From: Thermococcus kodakarensis KOD1
GTDB lineage: Archaea > Methanobacteriota_B > Thermococci > Thermococcales > Thermococcaceae
Length of the DNA stretch: 32,000 bases
Assembly (NCBI RefSeq): GCF_000009965.1
Contig: NC_006624.1
Location: 1,320,001-1,352,000 of the forward strand
Direction of reading: 5' to 3'
The notes beneath the pieces were generated by a model. That model saw only the letters and a program-made list of their open reading frames with translations. It did not search any database and was not told the DNA's origin. This document shows, in pieces, positions 77 to 31,198 of this stretch (within the stretch, counting starts at the first letter, position 1; each line of letters starts with the position of its first letter). The position numbers and the translations under genes are program-made.

Positions 77-154
77 GGACCGGTAGCCTAGCCAGGATAG
101 GGCGGCGGCCTCCTAAGCCGCAGGTCCGGGGTTCGAAGCCCCGCCGGTCCGCCA
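77..154 (+). tRNA. tRNA-Arg (anticodon CCT), CCA encoded
   Basis: Hand-folded cloverleaf. Acceptor GGACCGG/CCGGTCC, anticodon stem GCGGC/GCCGC with loop CTCCTAA, T arm CGGGG-TTCGAAG-CCCCG, discriminator G followed by CCA. Confidence 0.92.
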
Positions 155-156
155 TA

Positions 157-397
157 GAAACTTTTCTAATGAAAAGTTTCACCAAAGAGCGAATGTCCTT
201 TTGAGCGCCCTGCTTTTCAGTGATTCTCACAATCAATTTGCAATTCTCAAGGGGTTTGCTCGGAGTATAACGCCCAAAGGGCGTTAAAAAAGAAGAAAAA
301 CCCGCACTTCCCTGCCCATCCATCAAGAGAATCTAACCTTATCAAGCCAATTCTCGGAGACATTCGAGCTTTTGGTGAAGCTTTTCCAAAAAGCTTC
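157..397 (+). repeat. Hairpin-delimited non-coding repeat unit A1
   Basis: Bounded by perfect palindromes at 157-180 (GAAACTTTTC-TAAT-GAAAAGTTTC) and 377-397 (GAAGCTTTT-CCA-AAAAGCTTC). Central GC hairpin at 269-285 (AACGCCC-AAA-GGGCGTT) followed by an A-rich tract. About 85-90% identical by eye to 29324-29560. Confidence 0.9.
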
Positions 398-657
398 AGC
401 GCTGGCGGAAGATTGGTATGCTTTCTTTTTAGATATGCCTGCTTTTGAAGGGTTTACTTCCAATTGGCTGATTCAAAAGGATTTTCTCACCGTATAGTGC
501 CCGAAGGGCACTAAAAAGAAAGTCAAAAATCACAATTAGCGCGGGGATTTTGGAGTTAAACCCGCGCGAGCCTGCCTTCTTGAGAGCATACACTCCCTAA
601 CAGGCGAGATCGAGGAGAAGGGCACACACTTTTGGTGAAGCTTTTTCTAAAAGCTTC
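398..657 (+). repeat. Hairpin-delimited non-coding repeat unit B1
   Basis: Starts AGCGCTGGCGGAA. Central hairpin at 496-512 (AGTGCCC-GAA-GGGCACT) followed by AAAAAGAAAG. Ends in palindrome 637-657 (GAAGCTTTT-TCT-AAAAGCTTC). Homologous to 947-1204 (~70% by eye). Confidence 0.85.
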
Positions 658-946
658 CTGCGCGAAGTTTGATCAAGGTTCGTAGCTCTTTTTCGGAATG
701 CCAATTCACCGTGATTTTCCAACTCAAATGGCTTTTTGAGAGTGAGAACCCTTAATCCACCCTGTCAACTCGTGTTTAACTCTAAATCGGCGCCCTTTGG
801 GCGTCAAAGAAAAGAAAACACCCTCTTCAAGAAGCTTCCTAAAAGGTTCTCACTCAAAAATGAGCACTTGCAGTCTAAAATCCTAAAATAAAACCCTCTT
901 GAAGAAGAGCTACAAACTTTGATGAAACTTTGCCTGGCAAAGTTTC
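658..946 (+). repeat. Hairpin-delimited non-coding repeat unit C1
   Basis: Starts CTGCGCGAAGTTTGATCAAGGTTCGTAGCTC, shared with 29561-29633. Central hairpin at 789-805 (GGCGCCC-TTT-GGGCGTC) followed by an A-rich tract. Ends in palindrome 924-946 (GAAACTTTGC-CTG-GCAAAGTTTC). Confidence 0.8.
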
Positions 947-1204
947 AGCGCCGGCGGAAAAGAGGTATGCGTTTTTAATGAACTAATTTTTGAGTGGGTT
1001 TACTTTCGAGTTGCCAGACTTACAGGATTTTCCCCACAGTATAGTGCTCTTTGAGCGCTAAAAAGAAAGTTCGAAATCACAATTAACGAGAGATTTTTAA
1101 GAACAAACCCACACGCGAACCTGCTTTCTGGGGAGCATACACTCCCGATAAGCAAAGTTCGAGAAGAAGGGCACACTTTTGGTCAAGCTTTTTCCAAAAG
1201 CTTG
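947..1204 (+). repeat. Hairpin-delimited non-coding repeat unit B2
   Basis: Starts AGCGCCGGCGGAA. Central hairpin at 1043-1059 (AGTGCTC-TTT-GAGCGCT) followed by AAAAAGAAAG. Ends in palindrome 1184-1204 (CAAGCTTTT-TCC-AAAAGCTTG). Confidence 0.85.
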
Positions 1205-1218
1205 CTGGAAACGAAAGG

Positions 1219-1226
1219 CTTAAATA
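1219..1226 (+). promoter_or_regulatory. TATA box (CTTAAATA) with purine-rich BRE for the 1275 CDS
   Basis: GAAAGG-CTTAAATA lies ~50 nt upstream of the ATG at 1275. The SD GGAGGTGGT sits at 1262-1270. Confidence 0.55.
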
Positions 1227-8909: not shown

Positions 8910-8951
8910 TACGAATACACCTCCACATCCCTTTGAAACGATAAGGGATTT

Positions 8952-9651: not shown

Positions 9652-10449
9652 CTAAAATCCCCGTATTATGTCCCACACAACAGCCACACCTACTGCTCCA
9701 ACGACAAGGAGGACAAGGAAGCCAAGCTTTTTGTGCTTCGGGAATACGTAGGCTTCAGCGGCACCGAAGGCAACACTCTGAGCGGACAATAGGAGAAGGT
9801 TTTTGACGAGATGCTCACTTCTGCCCAACCTCAAAAGTTCATCGACCATCTCAAGAGAAGAGCCCCCTACAGTGTGTCCCAGGAGATAGACACCAACCAG
9901 CAAACCGGCACCGAAAAGGGAGGTCTTTATAATCCACAGGCCGAGGTCCCTAGCCGATGTTACCGTCCATTCCTTCCCAGAGGCGAGAGCATACAAAGTG
10001 AGGGGAATGTCTAATATCCACTGCACCATGAGGAGGAAGATAGGGATAAACGAAAAAATTTCCAGAAACATGGCGACCACGGAAATTGCCGCCCCCACAA
10101 CGTTTCCGGTTAAAAAGAGGGCCATGCCGAGCAGATACCAAACGATTATGTGATGACCAATTATTTCCTGTACATCCTTCACAAACCTGTCCCTGCCCCA
10201 GTTCTCCTCGAGGATTACGTGGAGCCGCTTAAAGTCTTCCCTCCGATATCCGTGCTTCTCAAGATGGCGGCCGATGAAAAAGAGAGCAGAAACTCCGAAG
10301 AGCGGGAGAAGTGCAAACATCGTCACGAGCAGTCCAGCATCTATGGTTTCGCCACCACTGCGGGCCCCCAAAAAGAGGAGGGCCATTAATATGGAAATCA
10401 TACCAACAACGGTCTCAATTATCAGCTTGAGGCCCTTCCTCCCCTCCAT
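9652..10449 (-). CDS. Uncharacterized polytopic membrane protein
   Basis: About 265 aa with at least six hydrophobic segments and no motif I recognise. The ATG at 10449 follows GGGGTG; the track start at 10458 is a GTG. It lies 30 nt downstream of cbf5. Confidence 0.6.
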   Translation of the reverse strand: MEGRKGLKLIIETVVGMISILMALLFLGARSGGETIDAGLLVTMFALLPLFGVSALFFIGRHLEKHGYRREDFKRLHVILEENWGRDRFVKDVQEIIGHHIIVWYLLGMALFLTGNVVGAAISVVAMFLEIFSFIPIFLLMVQWILDIPLTLYALASGKEWTVTSARDLGLWIIKTSLFGAGLLVGVYLLGHTVGGSSLEMVDELLRLGRSEHLVKNLLLLSAQSVAFGAAEAYVFPKHKKLGFLVLLVVGAVGVAVVWDIIRGF

Positions 10450-29323: not shown

Positions 29324-29560
29324 GAAACTTTGCAGGGCAAAGTTTCATCAAAGAGTGAATGTCCTTTTGAGCGCCCTGCGTTCAGTGATTCTCAATCATT
29401 AATTGGCAATTCTCAAGGGTTTACTCACAATATAACGCCCAAAGGGCGTTAAAAAATAAGAAAACCCGCACTTCTCCGCCCATCTATCAAGAGAATCTAA
29501 CCGTATCAAGCCAATCCTCGGAGACATTCAAACTTTGGTGAAGCTTTTCCCAAAAGCTTC
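29324..29560 (+). repeat. Hairpin-delimited non-coding repeat unit A2 (copy of 157-397)
   Basis: Bounded by palindromes 29324-29346 (GAAACTTTGC-AGG-GCAAAGTTTC) and 29540-29560 (GAAGCTTTT-CCC-AAAAGCTTC). Central hairpin at 29434-29450 is identical to 269-285. Confidence 0.9.
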
Positions 29561-29820
29561 CTGCGCGACGTTGAAGCTTCGCTTCAACGCACGGGACGAT
29601 AGTCCCGTTGAGTTTGATCAAGGTTCGTAGCTCATCCTTAAAAAGCTAGATTTCACGCGATTTTCTTCTTTGGAAAGCCAGTTTGAACATGAAAACACTT
29701 GAAATACCTTAGTTGTGTTGGTTTTAACTCCAAAACCAACGCCCAAAGGGGCGTCAAAAGAAAAATTAAAAAATTCCTGAAAGCATCCGACGAACGGCAA
29801 GAGCGACAAGGGAACCACCC
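29561..29820 (+). repeat. Hairpin-rich non-coding repeat unit C2 (related to 658-946), apparently ending at the ATPase gene
   Basis: Shares CTGCGCGA...AGTTTGATCAAGGTTCGTAGCTC with C1. It has extra perfect hairpins at 29569-29589, 29591-29608 and 29717-29740. The central hairpin at 29739-29754 is followed by an A-rich tract. Confidence 0.75.
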
Positions 29821-29821
29821 C

Positions 29822-31198
29822 TTAAACTTGGGTCTTTGAGGAAATAAGCCTTTCGAAGTCTCCTAAATCCCATACTAACCAGCCATCATCCCTGAGCTCT
29901 TCCTTTCCCTCGACGCTTTTAGCCACAAGCCCATAGCTCTTCTCCCATCCATCGAGGCCCGTAAGCTCGGCCTTCCTCTCCAAGTCCTTCAAAACCCCCC
30001 TCGCTTCCCTCTCTTTGAGCTCCTTCCACTTAACCTCAACGAACAGCGCCTTCTTTTCACGCTCGTTGAGGGCAACGAGGTCAATCTCCTCGCCCTTGTG
30101 CCACCAGCGGCCGAAGCGGTGGTACAAGCTGGGAAGGTGCCCCTTGGCCGAGAGCATTATCAGGAACTCCCTCGCAACCTTTTCGAAGGTAGTCCCCAGG
30201 TAGGTGTTGAAGTTCTTCCTGAAGTCCTCTATGGCGGGCTCAGGATTGAGGCCCTCAATGTCCTCATAGTGCGGGCTGACGAAGCGGTAGTAGAAGCGGA
30301 AGTACTCATCCTCGATTGTGTAGATCCCCCTCTTCGAGACCCTTTTGGTGACCGGAACCTCGCGCTTGACTATTCCAAGATTCTGGAGAACCCGAAGGTA
30401 GGCCGGAAGGTCCTTCGCCTCCATCATCGCGTACTGGGAGATCTCGGTGAGCCTCGTCTTCCCCAGGGCTATGGCCTCGATGATCTGGGCGTAGGTCGTC
30501 GGGTTTCTAAGCTCCTCCATTAGCAAAAGCCTCGCCTCGTTGAAGAGGAAAGCCGTTGGCTCAAAGAAGTTCGCGATTATCTCCTCGTCGCTCCCGTCCT
30601 TTAAGAGCTCCATGTACCTCGGAACTCCCCAGGTGACGCCGTAGAGGCGGACGAGCCTCTCAAAATCGCTCCCGTACCATTCCACCATGTCAAAGAACCT
30701 GAAGGGCTTCAGCTTCATTATACCCCTGGCCCTGCCGTAGAGGGGAGCCTTGTAGCCCAGAACCTCCCGCTCCATCATCCCCACACTTGAGCCCGAGAGG
30801 ATGAGGGTGACCTGGGAGTCCTTGATTATGAGGTCTACTATCTCCTGGAACACTGAAACTATGGGTCTGTAGGCCTCTATGAGATAGGGAAACTCATCGA
30901 TTACCACTACGAGCTTTCCCTGCTTTGTAAGGAACCTAAAAGCGTCCTCAAAGCTCCCGAACCTCACTGGCATACCAATGAACTCGCTCACTTCCTCCGA
31001 GAACCGTTCGAGGTCCTTTTCATACCCCCTCTGAGAGCACAGGAAGTAAATCCCCCTCTTGCCCTCAAGGAACTTTCTAAGGAGTGTTGTTTTCCCAACT
31101 CTCCTCCGCCCGTACACTACAATCAGGTTTGCCCCTCTGTTGTAGAGCTCCTCCAGCACCTCAAGCTCCCGTTTTCTGTTCACGAATTTACGGATCAT
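29822..31198 (-). CDS. Archaeal AAA+ ATPase (Arch_ATPase/COG1672 type) with wHTH and a DUF234 C-terminal domain (PD-(D/E)xK-like)
   Basis: 458 aa. N-terminal FVNRKRELEVL, Walker A GRRRVGKTT, Walker B VVVIDEFPY. A central wHTH-like block is TYAQIIEAIALGKTRLTEISQ. The C-terminus reads GRWWHKGEEIDLVAL...ALFVEVKWK. Confidence 0.85.
   Translation of the reverse strand: MIRKFVNRKRELEVLEELYNRGANLIVVYGRRRVGKTTLLRKFLEGKRGIYFLCSQRGYEKDLERFSEEVSEFIGMPVRFGSFEDAFRFLTKQGKLVVVIDEFPYLIEAYRPIVSVFQEIVDLIIKDSQVTLILSGSSVGMMEREVLGYKAPLYGRARGIMKLKPFRFFDMVEWYGSDFERLVRLYGVTWGVPRYMELLKDGSDEEIIANFFEPTAFLFNEARLLLMEELRNPTTYAQIIEAIALGKTRLTEISQYAMMEAKDLPAYLRVLQNLGIVKREVPVTKRVSKRGIYTIEDEYFRFYYRFVSPHYEDIEGLNPEPAIEDFRKNFNTYLGTTFEKVAREFLIMLSAKGHLPSLYHRFGRWWHKGEEIDLVALNEREKKALFVEVKWKELKEREARGVLKDLERKAELTGLDGWEKSYGLVAKSVEGKEELRDDGWLVWDLGDFERLISSKTQV

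Follow-up and report, generated by a model that had tools for sequence, protein, structure and literature searches.

Repetitive extragenic palindromic sequences and bacterial interspersed mosaic elements (REP/BIME), found in enterobacteria and pseudomonads and associated with RAYT transposases, are short intergenic palindromes assembled into modular mosaics, often at the 3' ends of transcription units. They are non-coding, multi-copy and conserved in hairpin pairing, they act as recombination and protein-binding sites, and in bacteria they bind gyrase and IHF. Few structured intergenic repeat families of the REP/BIME/BOX kind are known in Archaea. We analysed a stretch of 32,000 nucleotides of the Thermococcus kodakarensis KOD1 genome (the window; window position x is genome position 1,320,000 + x), in which positions 157-1204 hold four related non-coding modules in the order A-B-C-B', with five perfect palindromes between and around them. 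The array begins 2 nt past the CCA of tRNA-Arg(CCT), whose gene ends at 154, as a first-pass annotation made from the sequence had placed it. The modules belong to a family that is apparently undescribed, as far as we found, within the known class of prokaryotic structured intergenic repeats; the literature searched for MITEs (miniature inverted-repeat transposable elements) or repeats in Thermococcus yielded no published description of it. The niche occupied here, an unusual one, is the 3' flank of tRNA genes and the upstream border of a ribosomal protein operon.

Our preferred reading, to which we assign a probability of about 0.55, is a genus-wide Thermococcus family of non-coding, modular, palindrome-bounded repeats whose preferred site is the immediate 3' flank of tRNA genes and which spread by recombination. 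That the family is real is solid, as are its anatomy, its distribution, its linkage to tRNA genes, its turnover between species and the presence of modules at rearrangement junctions. The genus-wide family at tRNA 3' flanks, the palindromes as shared junctions, the lineage-specific replacement and the rearrangement breakpoints described below are all points that the first-pass annotation did not contain.

The likeness to REP/BIME extends to the short palindromes, the modular mosaics, the intergenic position often at transcription-unit 3' ends, the non-coding and multi-copy character, the conserved hairpin pairing and the candidate use as recombination and protein-binding sites. The Thermococcus palindromes differ in being 21-25 bp long and mostly perfect, and the 'linkers' that they bound are homologous bodies of 190-270 bp; the family also differs in being archaeal and tied to tRNA 3' flanks. 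MITEs such as Correia/CREE of Neisseria and SMN1 of Sulfolobus resemble the modules in size (220-310 bp), in being AT-rich and non-coding, in having conserved ends, drifting interiors and promoter- or terminator-like signals, and in a presence that varies between close relatives. The terminal inverted repeats and long-hairpin fold of MITEs are present in A- and C-type modules; such repeats are absent from the B-type, whose two ends differ. Unlike MITEs, the modules have neither a target-site duplication nor a known parent insertion sequence, they share terminal hairpins within arrays, and they prefer tRNA 3' flanks. A REP/BIME-like element, one direction suggested by the first-pass annotation, or a MITE-like one nevertheless remains the best fit. 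BOX elements of Streptococcus pneumoniae likewise combine a few module types (boxA, boxB, boxC) in variable order and number and are intergenic, structured and non-autonomous, but their modules are 45-60 bp long, are unrelated in sequence and have neither shared perfect hairpins nor a link to tRNA genes.

Other described systems were more distant. Integron cassette arrays also set n units and n+1 hairpin sites (attC) beside a fixed anchor, with variable sequence, conserved pairing and turnover of units. In the Thermococcus arrays, by contrast, non-coding and mutually homologous units stand beside a tRNA gene as anchor, most of the short hairpins are perfect, and no IntI or attI is nearby. An integron array was rejected: among the products of the flanking genes (tRNA, AsnC-type regulator, metallophosphoesterase, SPOUT methyltransferase, ATPase) there is no recombinase. 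In the comparison with attC-type sites most hairpins were perfect, and only the B-type left palindrome, CAGCCCTTNC...GNAAGCGCTG, kept a C·C mismatch. Thermococcales elements that target tRNA genes (pTN3, pT26-2, TKV), together with inversions (PMC5495485), match the modules in tRNA location and in association with large inversions; the modules differ in having no integrase gene or fragment and no att duplication, and in being repeated DNA beyond the CCA. IS200/IS605 palindrome-associated transposable elements (PATEs) are small and non-coding, with hairpins at both ends possibly read as single-stranded DNA, and the first-pass annotation had offered them as a second direction. Their ends are not mutual inverted repeats and they insert 3' of a fixed 4-5 nt target, whereas the A and C types end in long terminal inverted repeats, there is no fixed target nucleotide and the spacer between CCA and hairpin varies from 0 to 6 nt; this assignment was rejected.

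CRISPR requires repeats of 24-37 bp with unique spacers of 30-40 bp and was excluded, the palindromes being different from one another and the intervening 190-270 bp segments mutually homologous. Replication origin (oriC/ORB), C/D small RNA (sRNA) and H/ACA sRNA readings were also rejected, in agreement with the first-pass annotation, and dif was rejected because the KOD1 dif sequence differs. Rfam searches of positions 1-1400 at gathering and permissive thresholds passed tRNAs alone; the best E values of all other hits were at least 0.09, far under the gathering score. Chance or a purely local duplication was ruled out by a shuffle test and by metagenome copies. The idea that the units are unique to two loci and represent a decaying local duplication is contradicted by copies throughout the genus.

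Array anatomy and hairpin constraint

All five palindromes were found where the first-pass annotation had placed them, both in the sequence itself and by an inverted-repeat scan, with start-to-start distances of 220, 260, 287 and 260 nt. At a stem of at least 9 and a loop of at most 5, the scan returned eight perfect inverted repeats in the whole window, all of them at 157-1204 or at a second locus, 29324-29608. In dinucleotide shuffles the same scan returned 0.68 on average and never more than 4. A hidden Markov model (HMM) built from A-type units recognised B and B', at E 1e-18 and 2e-14, as well as C-type units, at 1e-12, and the common architecture of the four units therefore reflects homology. 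Module A was 88-90% identical to A2 of the second locus (29324-29560) and 82% identical to A', a module after tRNA-Arg(GCG). Module B was 75-78% identical to B', 76% to the B of T. peptonophilus and 77% to that of T. stetteri. Tandem Repeats Finder reported nothing for the array because the units are too diverged. The locus is an array of diverged related modules rather than a simple tandem repeat.

Each module runs from a short perfect hairpin through AYCAARG (AGCGCYGGCGG in the B-type), a body of 190-270 bp and CTTTGRT to another short perfect hairpin, and the centre of the body holds a conserved GC-clamp hairpin and an A-tract. Several of these motifs had been annotated beforehand. The A-rich tract was seen after every central hairpin. 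The central hairpins of A and B were perfect, and those of C and B' each contained one G·T pair. GTATA was present in A, B and B' but missing from C, and the annotated CTTT(T)GGT before the palindromes was present, although some copies read CTTTGAT instead. In A- and C-type modules, which are long imperfect inverted repeats, hairpin and AYCAARG point inwards from both ends and the long stem is tipped by the GC-clamp hairpin; folding z-scores were -5.4 for module A and -6.4 for module C. B-type modules have the same right end (CTTTTGGT plus hairpin) and central hairpin with A-tract as the others and differ in their left end (AGCGCYGGCGG). A further G/C-rich module type (GTACTCTCAAACCCC...) occurs in some arrays.

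Adjacent modules use one hairpin jointly, such that n modules have n+1 palindromes. The first modules after tRNA genes keep a full hairpin in which the outer arm matches the module's own inner arm (CAAACTTCGC/GCGAAGTTTG, GAAACTTTGC/GCAAAGTTTC and GAAACTTTTC/GAAAAGTTTC), and therefore the hairpin belongs to the module end. Where modules meet, they share or overlap hairpins. P3 overlaps the left arm that belongs to module C itself: its right arm can form a second, imperfect pairing with that arm, GAAGTTT at 663-669, as judged against CAAACTTCGC-GCAG-GCGAAGTTTG in contig L001.

The array has a GC content of 0.41-0.45, compared with 0.50-0.58 for adjacent genes, which bears out the annotated AT-richness. 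No open reading frame (ORF) contained entirely in 157-1204 is longer than 58 aa; on the reverse strand, an ORF of 104 aa at 12-326 extends over the tRNA-Arg gene and so is not contained in the array. Array ORFs of 41-58 aa had no real match in Pfam, the one weak match (E 0.24) falling under the cut-off. Copies differ by indels, and the earlier description of the units as non-coding holds.

Pairing in the hairpins is maintained by compensatory change. Among 14 distinct arm pairs of terminal hairpins, 124 of 131 cells were Watson-Crick, whereas 2000 shuffles of the partners averaged 100.7 and reached 113 at most, and compensatory changes were seen at stem positions 1, 4, 8 and 9. The central hairpin also covaries (GACGCCC/GGGCGTC, AGTGCCC/GGGCACT, AGCGCCC/GGGCGCT and GAGGCCC/GGGCCTC). 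Mismatches in the central hairpin were balanced, with 4 GT/TG versus 5 CA/AC; the terminal hairpins have too few G·T or A·C mismatches to show any bias. A- and C-types fold more stably on the minus strand, yet z-scores are alike on both strands, and the difference in stability is therefore compositional. With balanced mismatches and similar z-scores on the two strands there is thus no sign of selection on one RNA strand, and the hairpin constraint looks symmetric, at the level of DNA rather than of an RNA from one strand. Across 15 C-type copies, conservation was highest at the ends (0.88-0.89 consensus), followed by the central hairpin (0.81) and the interior (0.51-0.63). Variants of the terminal repeat were matched within each element (GTAGCTC/GAGCTAC, GTGGTTC/GAACCAC, GTGGCTC/GAGCCAC). 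We infer that the modules are DNA-level repeats of the REP/BIME/BOX/MITE kind, neither protein genes nor conserved one-strand RNA genes.

The B-type's own left palindrome, CAGCCCTTNC-loop-GNAAGCGCTG, was seen in the first 30 nt after the tRNA in L241, L249, L256, L266 and L234. Its C·C mismatch, at the fifth pair, is conserved, and its inner pairs covary (TTAC/GTAA, TTTC/GAAA, TTGC/GCAA).

Table 1. Coordinates of the repeat modules and associated features in the 32-kb window
Feature	Position	Strand	Description
tRNA-Arg(CCT), TKt25	77..154	+	ARAGORN, Rfam; 1320077-1320154 in Table S8 of PMC4247193
Palindrome P1	157..180		GAAACTTTTC-TAAT-GAAAAGTTTC; stem 10 bp, loop 4 nt
Module A body	181..376	+	Starts ACCAAAG, ends CTTTTGGT; long imperfect inverted repeat, single long hairpin fold
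Module A central GC hairpin	269..285		AACGCCC-AAA-GGGCGTT, perfect; A-tract next at 287-300
Palindrome P2	377..397		GAAGCTTTT-CCA-AAAAGCTTC; common to modules A and B
Module B body	398..636	+	Starts AGCGCTGGCGG, ends CACACTTTTGGT; no simple inverted repeat
BRE-like GTAAAC and weak TATA-like CCTTCAAAAG (candidate promoter)	452-457, 442-451	-	-38 to -23 of start site 419; read from the sequence
Module B central GC hairpin	496..512		AGTGCCC-GAA-GGGCACT, perfect; then A-tract
Palindrome P3	637..657		GAAGCTTTT-TCT-AAAAGCTTC; common to modules B and C
Module C body	658..923	+	Terminal inverted repeats of 33-48 nt (662-694 vs 901-933); single long hairpin fold
Module C central GC hairpin	789..805		GGCGCCC-TTT-GGGCGTC, one G·T pair; then A-tract
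Palindrome P4	924..946		GAAACTTTGCC-T-GGCAAAGTTTC; common to C and B'
Module B' body	947..1183	+	Comparison with other B-type modules
Module B' central hairpin	1043..1059		AGTGCTC-TTT-GAGCGCT, one T·G pair; then A-tract
Palindrome P5, terminal hairpin	1184..1204		CAAGCTTTT-TCC-AAAAGCTTG
Right limit of lineage-specific segment	1208..1226	+	T. peptonophilus homology restarts at GAAACGAAAGGCTTAAATAC, BRE/TATA of the metallophosphoesterase gene
Palindrome P6	29324..29346		GAAACTTTGC-AGG-GCAAAGTTTC
Module A2 body	29347..29539	+	Sequence comparison, HMM
Palindrome P7	29540..29560		GAAGCTTTT-CCC-AAAAGCTTC
Module C2	29561..29793	+	Left half and centre only; terminates at 3' end of ATPase gene
BRE/TATA-like GAAAGG-CTTATTTC (candidate promoter)	29841-29854	-	Upstream of start site 29820(-); read from the sequence

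Distribution beside tRNA genes and turnover between species

Copies of the family were found in T. peptonophilus, T. stetteri, T. siculi, T. nautili and T. onnurineus and on 27 metagenome contigs, the latter retrieved by a scan with the C-type end pattern. A tRNA 3' end adjoins 23 of the 35 Thermococcus arrays or fragments, and four more are cut by contig ends; 14 isoacceptors are represented, and the count includes loci retrieved through the C-type end pattern, with some contigs being near-duplicates. At the junctions that were read, the first hairpin lies 0-6 nt past the CCA, after spacers such as TA, GTA, TT, GTTA, TCATCA and GAAAA. A degenerate end pattern, TTTGRTSAARCTTTN{3,8}AAGYTTS, searched in the genome collection gave unrelated bacterial palindromes and no Thermococcus among the matches listed. 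In viral contigs this pattern gave noise only and the central-hairpin pattern had no match.

Module content differed from locus to locus and from species to species. In KOD1, further copies follow tRNA-Met (TKt16) and tRNA-Arg(GCG) (TKt24), the latter array reading P-A'-P-C'-P-TTTGGT-P, that is, A'-C' with two terminal hairpins. After tRNA-Arg(GCG), T. peptonophilus carries P-C-P-B-P, T. stetteri carries B alone and T. nautili has a partial copy. The CAAGC...GCTTG hairpin seen as P5, followed by CTRGAAA, also closes the tRNA-Arg(GCG) arrays of T. peptonophilus and KOD1. In T. siculi and T. onnurineus copies follow both tRNA genes of a flipped tRNA-Gly/tRNA-Arg pair. No array was seen in T. eurythermalis at the locus reached through uracil phosphoribosyltransferase homologues, the counterpart of the KOD1 tRNA-Met array, and the contig of T. 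sp. MV11 stops at the tRNA cluster of this locus. Many short-read contigs of the KOD1 organism terminate at the arrays, and the repeats would explain such assembly breaks in T. kodakarensis. Modules are also found directly upstream of the operon for SPOUT methyltransferase and ribosomal protein L3, at 29324-29800 in KOD1 and on two metagenomic contigs (L246:2924-3236 and L257:3546-4039).

T. peptonophilus, T. stetteri and another Thermococcus species keep the gene order AsnC-type regulator, tRNA-Arg(CCT), metallophosphoesterase, and at tRNA-Arg(CCT) they have an unrelated spacer of ~300 bp and no array. A protein neighbouring the array is 97% identical in T. peptonophilus. Right of the array, homology of the relatives to KOD1 restarts at GAAACGAAAGG (GAAACGAAAGGCTTAAATAC, window 1208). 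Because the relatives have an unrelated spacer and homology restarts at window 1208, the 1.05 kb array appears to be a KOD1-lineage-specific replacement of the ~300 bp spacer.

The relatives' spacer also holds a conserved ORF of 25-28 codons with a GGAGGTG ribosome-binding site (L230:9872-9949 in T. peptonophilus; L231:about 9848-9928). The predicted peptide reads MIEDAVLTYLIAIAGEKKRKKKRKA in T. peptonophilus, and the other species has MIEDALLYYLIAIRREKTKRRTKLSF; it begins with a hydrophobic stretch and ends in a basic one. This ORF is absent from KOD1 157-1204 and would have been lost together with the spacer that the array displaced.

The right part of the KOD1 array, C-B'-P5-CTGGAAA, has its counterpart in the entire tRNA-Arg(GCG) array of T. 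peptonophilus, C-B-P-CTAGAAAA, a few flanking bases included. The C module of that T. peptonophilus array was 84% identical to the KOD1 tRNA-Met C, against only 70% for the C module that KOD1 carries at the orthologous locus. Such similarities across loci point to exchange of modules between loci. In the mechanism that we propose, the KOD1-lineage array would derive by ectopic recombination or gene conversion from paralogous arrays, for example the tRNA-Arg(GCG) array 8.7 kb upstream. Its left end would have been anchored in the conserved 3' half of the tRNA and its right end closed at a GAAA microhomology.

Rearrangement junctions, transcription and rival explanations

Modules were also found at rearrangement junctions. 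In contigs L001 and L002, which carry a metallophosphoesterase identical to that of the window, tRNA-Thr/Asn/Met are joined directly to a C unit, followed by P5 and the metallophosphoesterase promoter. The join falls within a C unit or at P5. In their sizes and a 94-nt gap these tRNAs agree with TKt18/17/16, located at 1.128 Mb. As TKt16 and TKt25 lie in opposite directions, the junction implies an inversion of ~193 kb with its junction inside modules, although it could be a repeat-induced misjoin of short-read assemblies. No report of this ~193 kb TKt16-TKt25 inversion was found in the literature searched; the published KOD1/KU216/TS559 inversions involve TKV2/TKV3. The L001 (9290-9935) and L002 junctions come from sequencing runs ERR16012705 and ERR6384085. 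As a separate observation, the 35 point changes that distinguish TS559 from KOD1 (PMC5663688 Table 1) include a T insertion at genome position 1127248, intergenic and downstream of the tRNA-Met cluster, which falls inside the presumed TKt16 array.

The flipped tRNA-Gly/tRNA-Arg pair of T. siculi and T. onnurineus has module halves on both sides. In L244 and L255 one module lies between two convergent tRNA genes, the product expected of inversion between inverted modules. Inversion breakpoints in Thermococcales have been mapped to tRNA loci (Cossu et al. 2017, PMC5495485). The same study noted 'strictly conserved sequences immediately following' two recombining tRNA-Gly genes, and inversion between different tRNA genes alone was not reproduced (PMC5495485). 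The modules may supply the homology that was attributed there to the tRNA genes, and repeats past the CCA could be the missing homology for the tRNA-locus inversions that scramble Thermococcales genomes. Modules would thereby serve as dispersed homology where chromosomal inversions occur, a step of the mechanism that is partly shown.

Transcription from the arrays was assessed using published start sites. Two orphan sRNA start sites (Table S6, PMC4247193) map to the arrays of the window: TSS1320419_-, at 419(-) within module B, and TSS1349820_-, at 29820(-) on the edge of C2. From the first site, transcription heads left into P2 and module A's right half; from the second it enters C2 in the direction of a T-rich tract at 29757-29780. 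Both sites have, at the appropriate distance upstream, candidate promoters resembling a TFB-recognition element (BRE) and a TATA box (Table 1), and the geometry at 442-457 is the same as in the tRNA-Arg promoter, GTAAAC-TTTAAATA, at 34-47. A tRNA gene is found within 1.3 kb of 28 of the 53 unnamed orphan sRNA start sites, versus 2.2 expected at random, and most of these sites are downstream of the tRNA gene; the reported GC content of the orphan sRNAs does not fix their lengths. Weak BRE/TATA-like promoters in the modules account for 'T. kodakarensis-specific' orphan sRNAs clustered at tRNA genes, which is partly shown, and the family would explain why half of these 'species-specific orphan sRNAs' cluster there. 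Runs of T4-T6 occur on both strands in and beside every hairpin and A-tract, and therefore the arrays should hinder archaeal RNA polymerase both ways. Through these runs the array could act as a two-way transcription barrier between the tRNA gene and its neighbours. A near-identical promoter core, CGAAAGGCTTA(T/A)(T/A)T, was noted at 29841-29854(-), inside the 3' end of the ATPase gene, and at 1213-1226(+). It serves the orphan sRNA 29820(-) and the metallophosphoesterase gene just right of P5.

We weighed several other explanations for the family. Transposition is a possible, though unlikely, alternative: the modules would be non-autonomous MITE- or PATE-like elements whose terminal hairpins are read, possibly as single-stranded DNA, by a putative transposase or recombinase, with insertion 3' of tRNA genes or into hairpins and repeated insertion building the arrays. 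The long terminal inverted repeats and long hairpin folds of the A- and C-types would suit such elements, as would the conservation being greatest at the termini, the terminal-repeat variants matched within elements, and arm covariation without a G·U bias, as for hairpins read as DNA. Presence that varies between sister species, units that move between loci and hairpins 0-6 nt past the CCA at 14 tRNA types fit as well. However, no target-site duplication was recognisable around single elements or arrays, the CCA spacer is variable in length, the B-type has no inverted-repeat ends, and the gain at tRNA-Arg(CCT) replaced 300 bp with no clean insertion. Nor did a transposase or recombinase recur beside the arrays at ~30 loci, where nothing came up apart from syntenic duplicates, DUF835, DUF763, Rpp14 and the SPOUT methyltransferase. 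Distinctly doubtful is the proposal that the hairpins serve a putative Thermococcus recombinase as recombination sites, recognised in the form of folded single-stranded DNA, and that this enzyme inserts, excises and shuffles non-coding modules immediately 3' of tRNA genes, in which case a cassette-like machinery with its dispersed sites, not the tRNA genes, would underlie the frequent tRNA-linked inversions. Decayed plasmid or virus remnants integrated in tRNA genes, represented now by attachment-site-adjacent sequence, have almost no probability. A position directly after tRNA genes is typical of them and T. kodakarensis has four integrated virus-like regions at tRNA genes, but no distal copy of the tRNA 3' end was found within 3 mismatches, and no integrase fragment or coding remnant was seen. 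In addition, blastn of the array against plasmid and phage records gave no match (archaeal plasmids may be few or missing in the plasmid collection), one and the same family is found after 14 tRNA types, and some elements lie between convergent tRNA genes.

The start sites at 419(-) and 29820(-) could instead mark structured non-coding RNA (ncRNA) genes, co-transcribed with the tRNA and released by tRNA processing, or transcribed antisense from internal promoters, with the hairpins as 3'-end or stability elements. Four other tRNA genes have same-strand starts 67-85 nt downstream, which is consistent with this, as are folding-energy z-scores of -3 to -7, covarying hairpins and the constant orientation of modules relative to the tRNA gene in the arrays examined. 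We consider it quite improbable: orthologous loci of sister species vary in module type and number, conservation of the module interiors reaches only 50-60%, neither strand has an excess of G·U mismatches, z-scores are alike on both strands, and a single start site is reported for the four-module array. Runs of T4-T5 in and beside the hairpins should also halt archaeal RNA polymerase early, and there is no Rfam match. The processed ncRNA family suggested by the first-pass annotation is weak for the same reasons, namely varying module content at orthologous loci, sparse starts in differential RNA sequencing (PMC4247193) and the lack of a G·U versus A·C bias. Very improbable, too, is architectural or insulating DNA at the borders of highly transcribed units, binding TrmBL2/Smc roadblocks or topoisomerase. 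The arrays are AT-rich, with an A-tract in every module, they are located after tRNA genes and, in three lineages, upstream of the SPOUT-L3 operon, and the palindromes are under a symmetric, DNA-level constraint; in KOD1, AT-rich sites with many A-tracts are reported to be occupied jointly by TrmBL2 and Smc (PMC11840125). On the other hand, AT of 55-59% is far under the >75% reported at boundary 1, half-site covariation is unexpected for a simple dimeric binding site, and the fast turnover of modules argues against a precise role.

Several points also weigh against our preferred reading, a tRNA-flank repeat family spread by recombination. The argument for recombinational spread comes from junction anatomy at one locus, and the junction in L001/L002 could, as noted, be an assembly misjoin. 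The make-up of the tRNA-adjacency count, given above, tells in the same direction. Pairings of tRNA and element that are common to several lineages (tRNA-His, Arg-TCG, Leu-CAA and Arg-GCG) hint at function, and so does the persistence of modules at the SPOUT-L3 operon in three lineages (KOD1 and two metagenomic), where there is no tRNA gene. Compensated perfect hairpins and conserved termini suggest a reader protein or process, for which neutral recombination alone would be insufficient. The identity of the reader that the compensated hairpins imply could reveal a new recombination, termination or chromatin system in a tractable hyperthermophile.

The second locus and neighbouring features

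The second locus of the window, 29324-29800, carries A2-C2 and has no adjacent tRNA gene. The left palindrome of C2 is split by a 43-bp insert of two perfect hairpins, CGTTGAAGC-TTC-GCTTCAACG and ACGGGAC-GATA-GTCCCGT, at 29569-29589 and 29591-29608. This insert recurs in T. siculi (L240), where it follows tRNA-Arg(GCG), and in a metagenome contig (L265), where it follows tRNA-His, and its first stem shows a compensatory change (GTTGAAGC/GCTTCAAC versus GTTGGAGC/GCTCCAAC). Its presence in T. siculi and L265 with a compensatory change suggests that the two-hairpin insert is an old sub-module.

ARAGORN identified five tRNA genes in the window, at positions that coincide with TKt25, TKt26, TKt28 and TKt29 (Table S8, PMC4247193). 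A neighbouring protein carries the KOD1 annotation TK1481/BAD85670. The metallophosphoesterase orthologue of T. stetteri was called as two ORFs of 216 and 54 aa (L234:1948-2710), the result either of a frameshift or of a fault in the assembly. Directly after tRNA-Ser(TGA), at window 8925-8951 on the minus strand, there is an unrelated hairpin, AAATCCCTT-ATCGTTTC-AAAGGGAT, and it is kept in T. peptonophilus and in L231.

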